A stretch of 64,000 nt of DNA, taken from contig JAXJWH010000136.1 in assembly GCA_036308125.1 (NCBI GenBank), positions 23,499 to 87,498 of the forward strand, in the 5' to 3' direction. Both the position numbers and the translations under genes were made by a program. Positions 14,345 to 15,559 of this stretch are shown one piece after another. Positions within the stretch are counted from its first letter, which is position 1, and each line of letters opens with the position of its first letter. The notes under the pieces were generated by a model. It was not told the DNA's origin. It worked only from the letters and a program-made list of their open reading frames with translations, and did not search any database. The stretch comes from Agathobacter sp. (GTDB lineage Bacteria; Bacillota; Clostridia; Lachnospirales; Lachnospiraceae).

Positions 14345-15559
14345 TTATCCTACAATATTTTTTCCATACTGTGCCTCTTCAACACTCATTCTGATTCTAA
14401 TGCAGCTTTCATCTTCGCAATCATCATAAACCATGGAGATAATTCTATTTGCCACAAGCATTGCAAGCTCTTTTGTGCATGTTGGCAACAATATTATGTA
14501 TTGCGAATCGCTATATTTTGAAGCAACATCACCTACTCTTAAGCATCTCTTCAATACATCAGCCATTATATCCATTGTATCTTTTATTGTATCATCAATC
14601 TGTTTTTGTGTTGCAGGTTTTCTATCCAGTCTTTGAAAAAATTCAACGGTCAACAACAATAAGTTTTCCGGTTCCTTTCTTCTTTCATTTTTTCTTACTT
14701 CTAACCTGTATATTTCTTTAAAAATCGGATATCCACACAGAAATACTCCTGAAGGATCTTCCTCAGATATATCTCTTTTTACATCAATCATATTGTATTT
14801 TGCGGAACCTTTACTTGTTAAAAGAAGTTCTTCATAAACCTTATTCAACACAACAGTTTTTCGTATACCAAGTTCTTTTTCTATAATTTCTCTTGCTCTT
14901 TCATAAGATGATAATGCTAAAGAAATCTGACCTGATTTCATTCTTGCCTCTATCTGGTAACAATATAATTGCTCATCACCTTTTTCGAATTTCAACGCAT
15001 CATTACAAAGCCTGTCTAAATCTGAATACCTTTCAACTTTCAAATACAATTCGCACAATGCCTTTACGCATGTCAGGTACAAACCATGATAATAAGTATT
15101 AAGCGTAATAACCCAATGCATATCTAAAAGTTTTGACATAAAATCCCCTTTATATAAGGCAATAGCCTCTTCATATGTATATATTGCCTCTTCGTAAACA
15201 TTCTCTTTTTTAGCTTGTAATGCTAACCTTTCAAATTCTTCTATATCAAGAACTACTTTAATTGCTGGATTCCATTTATAAGAACCTCTGTTCGTAATGA
15301 TGTAATCATTCTCTCCAAAATTTTCATTCAAAGCCTTTCTAAGCCTATACATTAAGTTTTTCAACGCATTAGACGGATTTTCTGTTCCGTCATCTACCCA
15401 TAAGGCGGCTGAAATATCTTCTGTCGCCAGTGTTTTGTCACGATGAAGTAACATATAAGTAAAAAGTTTTGAAATCATATTCGAATGAATATTGCCCTCA
15501 TTCAATAATACAACTCCGTCTGAAATTAAAAATTTTCCCAGTGTGTATACTGTTAGCAT
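14345..15559 (-). CDS. SARP-type regulator: OmpR-like winged-helix + BTAD domain fused to a degenerate GGDEF domain that retains an RxxD I-site
   Basis: The N-terminus LGKFLIS..ALKNLMYRLRKAL..YKW and the TPR-like BTAD region resemble the AfsR/DnrI/EmbR families. The C-terminal RVGDVASKYSDSQYIILLP aligns with RxxD-xxx-RYGGDEF-xxLLP. Confidence 0.65.
   Translation of the reverse strand: MLTVYTLGKFLISDGVVLLNEGNIHSNMISKLFTYMLLHRDKTLATEDISAALWVDDGTENPSNALKNLMYRLRKALNENFGENDYIITNRGSYKWNPAIKVVLDIEEFERLALQAKKENVYEEAIYTYEEAIALYKGDFMSKLLDMHWVITLNTYYHGLYLTCVKALCELYLKVERYSDLDRLCNDALKFEKGDEQLYCYQIEARMKSGQISLALSSYERAREIIEKELGIRKTVVLNKVYEELLLTSKGSAKYNMIDVKRDISEEDPSGVFLCGYPIFKEIYRLEVRKNERRKEPENLLLLTVEFFQRLDRKPATQKQIDDTIKDTMDIMADVLKRCLRVGDVASKYSDSQYIILLPTCTKELAMLVANRIISMVYDDCEDESCIRIRMSVEEAQYGKNIVG

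Follow-up and report, generated by a model that had tools for sequence, protein, structure and literature searches.

The 64,000-nucleotide stretch of Agathobacter sp. DNA analysed here (assembly GCA_036308125.1, contig JAXJWH010000136.1, positions 23,499 to 87,498; hereafter the window) contains a minus-strand gene (14345..15559) for a 404-aa regulator that joins a SARP activator, made up of a winged helix and a BTAD domain, to a degenerate and truncated GGDEF domain, an assignment drawn from open reading frame (ORF) calling, Pfam, AlphaFold (AF2) and Foldseek. Its sequence suggests that the protein is probably a new kind of gene switch controlled by cyclic diguanylate (c-di-GMP) and built from two known families, SARP and GGDEF. 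On balance, we favor an account in which this SARP activates both flanking operons, which encode surface fibre and adhesin proteins, senses through a GGDEF domain of which only the allosteric product site (I-site) survives, and forms a dimer favored by c-di-GMP.

By every testable criterion the regulator is a member of the SARP family. An OmpR-type winged-helix DNA-binding domain (residues 31-92; 15284..15469, minus strand) matches Pfam Trans_reg_C at 32.1 bits against a cut-off of 26.2 and shares its fold with the DNA-binding domains of AfsR and EmbR. It is followed directly by a TPR-like BTAD domain (residues 104-246; 14822..15250, minus strand) that scores 71.8 bits against a cut-off of 22.1 and spans profile positions 1-146 of 146. 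A flexible linker (residues 247-270; 14750..14821, minus strand), with predicted local distance difference test (pLDDT) values of 48-68 in the full-length model, leads to the degenerate, C-terminally truncated GGDEF-fold domain (residues 271-395; 14375..14749, minus strand). Foldseek searches with the full-length AF2 model (mean pLDDT 86.5; predicted template modelling score, pTM, 0.60) returned EmbR and AfsR first, over the N-terminal half (E ~1e-9), and then GGDEF domains only. NCBIfam gave sub-threshold matches only, to the SARP models BagI/FevR and AfsR over residues 30-254 and to the diguanylate cyclase models DgcA, PleD, SiaD and DgcR over residues 280-401. The succession of winged helix, BTAD domain and GGDEF fold had been proposed in a preliminary description of this DNA, and Pfam, a family profile and the fold matches bear it out.

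The same build recurs throughout a large family. The regulator has 496 relatives at E <= 1e-3, and a search with its C-terminal domain alone gives 755 representatives when sequences are clustered at 50% identity; since nearly all of these are ~400 aa long and carry the domain at ~260-395, the architecture of a SARP with a degenerate GGDEF domain is fixed. Database names for the relatives are confined to "BTAD domain-containing putative transcriptional regulator" and "DNA-binding SARP family transcriptional activator." The best match in a collection with one genome per GTDB species is 62% identical, and the window species is seemingly absent there; a 99% identical protein is present on a short Logan contig.

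Taken alone, the regulator scores below the Pfam cut-off for GGDEF (residues 289-377, profile positions 24-107 of 161; 19.3 bits, E 1e-3, cut-off 23.8; 19.3-22.2 bits across scans). The assignment is secured despite this score by the family profile, its individual members, the AlphaFold model and the fold matches. A profile built from 36 diverse C-terminal domains retrieved GGDEF domains only from the PDB (best E 1.3e-8), and 29 of the 36 individually matched Pfam GGDEF (PF00990). Modelled alone, the regulator's domain reached a pLDDT of 92.2 and a pTM of 0.84, and the best 50 PDB fold matches of this model were all GGDEF domains (template modelling score 0.6-0.7, query-normalised; root-mean-square deviation ~3 Å). 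Other palm-type folds (adenylate cyclase, Cas10, PucR-type GGDEF_2) were absent from these top 50 matches and from Pfam results at E <= 10. Hidden Markov model searches, which the preliminary description had recommended, thus confirmed the BTAD domain above its cut-off and the GGDEF domain through the 36-domain profile, though not through the regulator's own Pfam score; the possibility raised there that the region might lack a GGDEF score or adopt a different fold was checked, and fold and family profile both point to GGDEF.

Sequence and model together indicate that the C-terminal part of the regulator is a GGDEF superfamily domain whose core, of the order alpha0-beta-alpha-beta-beta-alpha-beta, is shortened to residues ~271-395 of a 404-residue protein. 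The GGDEF pattern originally assigned to a C-terminus of ~150 aa therefore stands as regards the fold, but the domain is a truncated core from which about the last 50 residues of the canonical, longer domain are missing.

Within this core, the residues of the active site are lost and those of the I-site are kept. A HMMER search against PDB sequences aligned the regulator segment CLRVGDVASKYSDSQYIILLP to CLRDGDVLARYGGEEFVLLLP of SadC, which places RVGD at the position of the RxxD I-site and SDSQY at that of the SadC GGEEF motif, with an equal spacer of five residues. The whole element, R341-V-G-D344, the spacer VASKY and then S350-D-S-Q353-Y in place of GGDEF, lies at 14498..14539 on the minus strand (residues 341-354, RVGDVASKYSDSQY), exactly where the preliminary description had put it, and that reading agrees both with the SadC alignment and with conservation among 90 full-length representatives (mean pairwise identity of 32% in the C-terminal domain; 143 positions ranked). 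At this level of divergence R341 is kept in 89 and D344 in all 90 representatives, so that the presence of RVGD at the I-site position is not due to chance. A third primary I-site arginine, R372 (codon at 14444..14446, minus strand; conserved in 89/90), aligns with the alpha3 Arg of GGDEF domains and corresponds to R402/R395 of PelD. We also take it to be the equivalent of PleD R390, since it lies 28 residues past the Asp of RxxD, as in PleD.

Two further arginines, R289 (89/90) and R293 (88/90), lie in helix alpha0 (codons within 14681..14695, minus strand), and the family profile aligns R293 with the Arg that ends helix alpha0 in DgcR and TM1788. The match ranges for WspR (3bre_A) are consistent with the equivalences R293 = R198 and R341 = R242 if the chain index is assumed to equal the residue number; R198 of WspR is the secondary I-site arginine, with R293 as its probable counterpart in the regulator. 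The eight most conserved of the 143 positions are F280, D344, R289, L340, R341, Q353, R372 and R293, and four of these (R341, D344, R372 and R293) are canonical c-di-GMP I-site positions.

The catalytic features have fared differently. Across the family the GG(D/E)EF motif has become S-x-[STN]-Q-[YF] (S350 in 77/90, Q353 in 89/90), the metal-binding Asp of beta1 is Thr in 72/90 (T304 in the regulator), the segment that holds the guanine-binding Asn and Asp (residues 306-328) is variable and has indels, and the C-terminal phosphate-binding part of GGDEF is absent, the domain stopping after the fourth core strand. Failing on every one of these counts as an active diguanylate cyclase, the domain is, as far as sequence can tell, catalytically dead, and it has the sequence features of an I-site receptor of the PelD/PopA type.

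The second line of evidence concerns the regulator's targets. Upstream of the start codon of operon 2 at 18213, the coding strand reads TGTTACA-tcg-TGTGACA-tcta-TGTGACA, followed by 9 nt and TATAAT (18247..18289, minus strand; TGTTACA 18283-18289, TGTGACA 18273-18279 and 18262-18268, TATAAT 18247-18252), and upstream of the start codon of operon 1 at 12458 it reads TGTGACC-aata-TGTGACA, 9 nt and TATATT (12501..12533, minus strand; TGTGACC 12527-12533, TGTGACA 12516-12522, TATATT 12501-12506). The TGTCACA repeats that had been noted at both operon promoters are thus real, TGTCACA being TGTGACA on the coding strand. By itself the TGTCACA heptamer shows no enrichment in the window (14 occurrences vs 9.7 expected); only the composite of repeat and -10 element is significant. 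A bidirectional terminator-like hairpin (18309-18330) between greA and the operon 2 promoter isolates this predicted SARP-dependent promoter from read-through.

Scanning one genome per GTDB species gave 235 relatives, from which 79 loci (L001-L079; 1.4 Mb) were fetched; their titles name Lachnospiraceae genera (Agathobacter, Roseburia, Lachnobacterium, Acetatifactor, Robinsoniella, Lactonifactor, Acetitomaculum) or unclassified Clostridia metagenome-assembled genomes. TGTGAC-N5-TGTGAC, allowing <=1 substitution, turns up 148 times on the gene strand of these loci against 2 on the opposite one. The sites keep to three positions: ahead of the gene for the homologue of the 238-aa operon 2 protein, immediately behind the regulator and ahead of the adhesin gene, and within the downstream cluster. 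A common form runs through the 144 unique sites: gTGTGAC[C/T]-N4-TGTGAC[T/C], exactly 9 nt, TATAnT, with A/T-rich sequence upstream and no -35 hexamer. A weight matrix built from them and run over the 64-kb window found exactly two sites, 12501-12534 (32.6 bits, the best) and 18247-18280 (29.3 bits), which are the two operon promoters; the next best score in the window was -0.8 and the shuffle maximum 13.4. SARP sites consist of direct repeats ~8 nt upstream of the -10 element that overlap the -35 region and hold two DNA-binding domains side by side (PMC11301090), and the predicted promoters in the window and its relatives match this layout, with heptamers repeated every 11 bp in the place of the -35 element. 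It seems to us very probable that the regulator is a SARP activator of both operons, and the earlier suggestion that it controls the two flanking fibre operons through TGTGACA repeats is strongly supported by synteny, by the strand bias of the sites and by the matrix scan.

The distribution of sites also bears on how the genes are transcribed. The matrix scan found no TGTGAC repeat upstream of the regulator gene in the window, and since its own candidate promoter (TGGAAA, 17 nt, TG-TATAAT; 15614..15642, minus strand) lacks the repeats, there is no sign of autoregulation through this motif; one related locus (L069) is an exception, with a TGTGAC site upstream of the regulator. A third SARP-type promoter, often TATGAC-N5-TGTGAC, lies within the downstream cluster of many relatives, ahead of the g7583/M73 homologues (~16000-18900 in locus coordinates). 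The same scan found no such internal promoter in the window, so operon 1 is probably one long transcript. In most of the reduced loci that lack the motif, sipW or a gene for a 156-aa protein comes directly after the regulator gene and is probably co-transcribed with it, and no separate promoter is therefore expected. In three loci (L003 13711-19925, L005 11948-18726 and L015 11502-17930) the motif precedes genes for surface proteins of 1,500-1,650 aa and pilin-like proteins of 450-490 aa that replace the BsaA/SipW set, suggesting that the regulator family controls different surface-structure cargoes across species.

All genes in the regulator region lie on the minus strand. Operon 2 (15713..18213), the predicted target upstream of the regulator, encodes a 238-aa BsaA-family, SipW-dependent matrix protein (17497-18213; NCBIfam TIGR04090, sub-threshold) and a 589-aa membrane/surface protein (15713-17482). 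Operon 1 (5227..12458), the predicted target downstream, encodes a 970-aa fibro-slime/PA14/SpaA adhesin (9546-12458), a stand-alone SipW-type peptidase (9014-9541), three BsaA/camelysin-like proteins (8400-9044, 7583-8386 and 6956-7567), a 406-aa fusion of a SipW-like peptidase to a class B sortase (5725-6945) and, as its last gene, the 156-aa cytoplasmic protein (5227-5697). The fusion protein matches SipW/archaeal-type signal peptidase I (TIGR02228, 76 bits) and class B sortase (TIGR03064, 156.8 bits, above cut-off), and it has homologues in 48 of the 79 related loci. In 45-46 of these loci homologues of the operon 2 genes immediately precede the regulator, and those of the adhesin, SipW, the SipW-sortase fusion and the M73-like proteins lie downstream of it in 31-48, on the regulator's strand and in the same gene order; in 46 loci the regulator sits inside one conserved BsaA/TasA-SipW-sortase-adhesin cluster.

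In the window, the regulator and operon 1 are separated by sdaAB-sdaAA (L-serine dehydratase beta and alpha; 12621..14181, minus strand; Pfam), which the preliminary description had counted against linking the two by operon logic. The pair, with a promoter-like site to itself (TTGACA at 14304), lies 3' of the regulator's intrinsic terminator (14311..14342, minus strand; a 14-pair stem, then a T run). Because sdaAA and sdaAB stand beside the regulator in none of the 79 related loci, we regard the pair as a lineage-specific local insertion that is not part of the system, and the objection is removed. The 156-aa gene is the regulator's most persistent neighbor: it is directly adjacent in four loci (L010, L011, L013, L033) and ends a reduced regulator-sipW-srtB cluster in at least 7. 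Its product matches nothing in Pfam or NCBIfam and has 223 "hypothetical" homologues, and it may work with the SARP-GGDEF protein as a partner or co-regulator.

How the sensor domain might act on these promoters is suggested by known I-site receptors. In PelD of P. aeruginosa (R367, D370, R402) and of B. cereus (R363, D366, R395), isothermal titration calorimetry showed each of these residues to be needed for c-di-GMP binding, and the B. cereus protein binds with a dissociation constant of ~100 nM (PMC7112168). R341, D344 and R372 of the regulator match this triad. Our main argument for a receptor function is that all four canonical c-di-GMP contacts rank among the eight best-conserved positions, and on sequence grounds we consider it reasonably likely that the domain binds c-di-GMP.

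We infer c-di-GMP binding, dimerisation by cross-linking and an activating response from this pattern, as follows. The C-terminal domain would have descended from a diguanylate cyclase, giving up GTP binding and catalysis while keeping the allosteric product-site residues. In the product inhibition of PleD and WspR, an intercalated c-di-GMP dimer cross-links two domains. Two protomers of the regulator would bind head-to-tail on TGTGAC[C/T] heptamers with an 11-bp period, which would stand in for the -35 element, 9 nt upstream of the -10, and the regulator would recruit RNA polymerase as AfsR does. An intercalated c-di-GMP dimer could then bridge the primary site of one protomer (R341, D344, R372) to the secondary site of the other (R293, perhaps R289), and this cross-link would stabilise the dimer on the tandem heptamers in its activating form, so that high c-di-GMP would turn on fibre and adhesin production. 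VpsT and BldD are precedents for ligand-driven dimerisation that enables DNA binding. Induction of biofilm matrix and adhesins by high c-di-GMP is a general paradigm, and activation was chosen as the sign of the response because such genes are usually induced by c-di-GMP.

Several points weigh against this account. The pTM of 0.60 means that the arrangement of the regulator's domains, and with it the allosteric path, is not confidently predicted. The domain is without the C-terminal third of a GGDEF domain, and we know of no truncated GGDEF form of this kind shown to bind c-di-GMP. Active cyclases, too, often have the R and D of the RxxD loop and the Arg of alpha3, so part of the conservation of these residues could be inherited structure. 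I-site binding does not explain the invariant Q353, or S350, in the hairpin of the former active site, and the response to c-di-GMP could be inhibition instead of activation. A phmmer probe of ORFs >=120 aa and Pfam searches of 50 proteins found no GGDEF, EAL or PilZ gene in the window, and no Rfam family reached its gathering score across the whole window, indicating that no c-di-GMP riboswitch lies on the operons here. Cyclase genes are not enriched near the regulator either, the 1.4 Mb of related loci holding 3 canonical GGDEF ORFs, all within 10 kb of it (L031 2440-3894, which has RxxD; L038 1643-3295; L040 1537-3171). Since canonical GGDEF cyclases do occur in related genomes, c-di-GMP signalling is plausible for the lineage, on the evidence of these relatives and not of the window organism.

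We judge it unlikely that the regulator activates both operons while its GGDEF-like domain binds no nucleotide and acts as a constitutive dimerisation or protein-interaction module, its R and D residues forming a protein interface, possibly with the 156-aa cytoplasmic protein (5227-5697). Such a role would suit a domain that is truncated and heavily remodelled and in which Q353, S350, C275 and F280 are as strongly conserved as the I-site residues, and the persistence of the 156-aa gene beside the regulator would also fit. It would, however, make a striking coincidence of the fact that half of the eight top-conserved positions are GGDEF I-site contacts of c-di-GMP, and c-di-GMP binding has been the outcome for PelD, PopA and the other degenerate GGDEF domains tested that retain RxxD.

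Less likely still is that some nucleotide other than c-di-GMP, for example (p)ppGpp, GTP, c-di-AMP or 3'3'-cGAMP, occupies the I-site-like pocket, which would tie fibre expression to some other signal, such as nutritional state. An arginine-rich pocket (R289, R293, R341, R372) could hold other phosphorylated guanine nucleotides, and PDB entry 9g86 contains PleD with both c-di-GMP and pppGpp; against this, the literature found describes RxxD I-sites as binders of c-di-GMP only, and no sequence feature of the regulator suggests a different ligand. Continued activity of the domain as a diguanylate or other nucleotidyl cyclase with an unusual motif is extremely improbable. One report (PMC3974145) describes non-canonical motifs, such as AGDEF, that keep activity, but in the regulator both motif glycines and the catalytic Glu are replaced, Thr takes the place of the beta1 metal Asp, variation and indels mark the segment of the guanine-binding Asn and Asp, and there is no phosphate-binding C-terminal subdomain. 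A c-di-GMP-gated SARP remains our preferred reading of the regulator.

The regulator resembles known SARPs (AfsR, ActII-ORF4, DnrI and RedD of Streptomyces; EmbR of Mycobacterium) in its N-terminal OmpR-type winged helix and BTAD domain, in heptamer direct repeats with an 11-bp period that take the place of the -35 element 8-9 nt upstream of the -10, and in being encoded, as predicted here, within the cluster that it controls. Larger SARPs likewise carry a C-terminal sensory module (FHA in EmbR, NOD/TPR in AfsR). Unlike these proteins, the regulator belongs to a host from the Lachnospiraceae (Firmicutes) rather than the Actinobacteria, its predicted targets are surface fibre, adhesin and sortase genes preceded by the heptamer TGTGAC[C/T] instead of antibiotic clusters, and its C-terminal module is a degenerate GGDEF domain, which we have not found described for any SARP.

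With degenerate-GGDEF receptors (PelD of P. aeruginosa and B. cereus, PopA of Caulobacter, SgmT of Myxococcus, YdaK of B. subtilis) the regulator shares a dead GGDEF fold, an RxxD five residues before the former motif, a downstream Arg, and, as predicted here, an output on biofilm matrix or surface structures. Those receptors act post-translationally, through activation of polysaccharide synthases, protein localisation or kinase control, and none is fused to a DNA-binding domain, whereas the regulator's domain is ~50 residues shorter and has a fixed motif of its own, S-x-[ST]-Q-[YF]. Transcription factors that respond to c-di-GMP (VpsT, BldD, FleQ, MrkH, Clp, BrlR, CuxR) couple the messenger directly to transcription of matrix, adhesin or motility genes, as we propose here, but their binding modules are REC-type, the BldD C-terminal domain, AAA+, PilZ, CRP, MerR and cupin, with no GGDEF I-site and no SARP among them.

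The predicted targets also have known counterparts. Both sipW-bsaABCRSD of C. perfringens and tapA-sipW-tasA of B. subtilis combine a SipW-type peptidase with BsaA/TasA-like secreted matrix proteins that polymerise into fibres, a set also encoded in the window, and the C. perfringens cluster has a class B sortase gene adjacent to it as well. The window cluster differs from both in adding a SipW-SrtB fusion and a 970-aa fibro-slime/SpaA adhesin. Control of sipW-bsaA in C. perfringens is by a two-component system, whereas that of the window cluster is predicted to be by the SARP-GGDEF protein.

In the literature we found no prior description of a SARP or BTAD protein with GGDEF or c-di-GMP, of a degenerate-GGDEF transcription factor, or of a SARP with a sortase or pilus; nor did we find a SARP or any other DNA-binding protein described as sensing through a GGDEF I-site, or, in work on c-di-GMP in Lachnospiraceae, a regulator of this type. 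Many bacteria have numerous diguanylate cyclases and few recognised c-di-GMP receptors, an acknowledged gap (bioRxiv 10.1101/2024.11.10.622515). Should c-di-GMP binding hold for the family, effectors would gain a new architecture, in which a DNA-binding SARP carries an I-site-only GGDEF domain, and Lachnospiraceae a first direct transcriptional c-di-GMP output; the messenger would be tied to surface fibres and adhesins, probably governing the attachment of butyrate producers to mucus, to dietary fibre and to each other. The predicted regulon is sharply defined, with two 34-bp promoter elements in the window and more than 140 conserved sites in relatives, and it extends SARP regulators well beyond actinobacterial antibiotic clusters. 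We would give roughly even odds to the broadest form of the proposal, in which the whole Lachnospiraceae-wide family (at least 755 sequence clusters) consists of c-di-GMP-gated SARPs, the first transcription factors to sense c-di-GMP through a GGDEF I-site. An intercalated c-di-GMP dimer would hold two protomers in the head-to-tail register that suits 11-bp repeats and RNA polymerase recruitment, and in gut commensals that are abundant and make butyrate (Agathobacter, Roseburia) the family would serve as a master switch for giant adhesins, sortase pili and BsaA/TasA fibres.

The only candidate c-di-GMP turnover gene in the window encodes a response regulator with REC and HD-GYP domains (32570-33640, minus strand; Pfam), and the preliminary description had correctly placed it inside a che operon (MCP, CheW, CheA, CheY, CheB, CheR). 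Its product matches Pfam HD_5 at 109.8 bits and keeps HHEKWDGTGYP; its catalytic competence is doubtful because the HD dyad position reads CDLGN instead of the usual HD[IV]GK. This HD-GYP may be a variant or lack catalysis, and the protein could be a receptor rather than a phosphodiesterase. The link once conjectured between this protein and the regulator is unsupported: the che operon is unrelated and 17 kb away, the dyad is altered, and the two loci share neither motif nor synteny.

Two other signalling genes lie on the far side of operon 2. The product of one (20711-23389, minus strand) joins a hybrid histidine kinase (HisKA, HATPase, REC) to a DegV domain (fatty-acid-binding) at its C-terminus, and a second hybrid kinase, with an Hpt domain, follows at 23404-26238; both are found upstream of greA in 12-15 of the related loci. 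Across the window, the minus strand carries nearly all genes of >=100 aa and GC skew is negative throughout, consistent with a location on one replichore.

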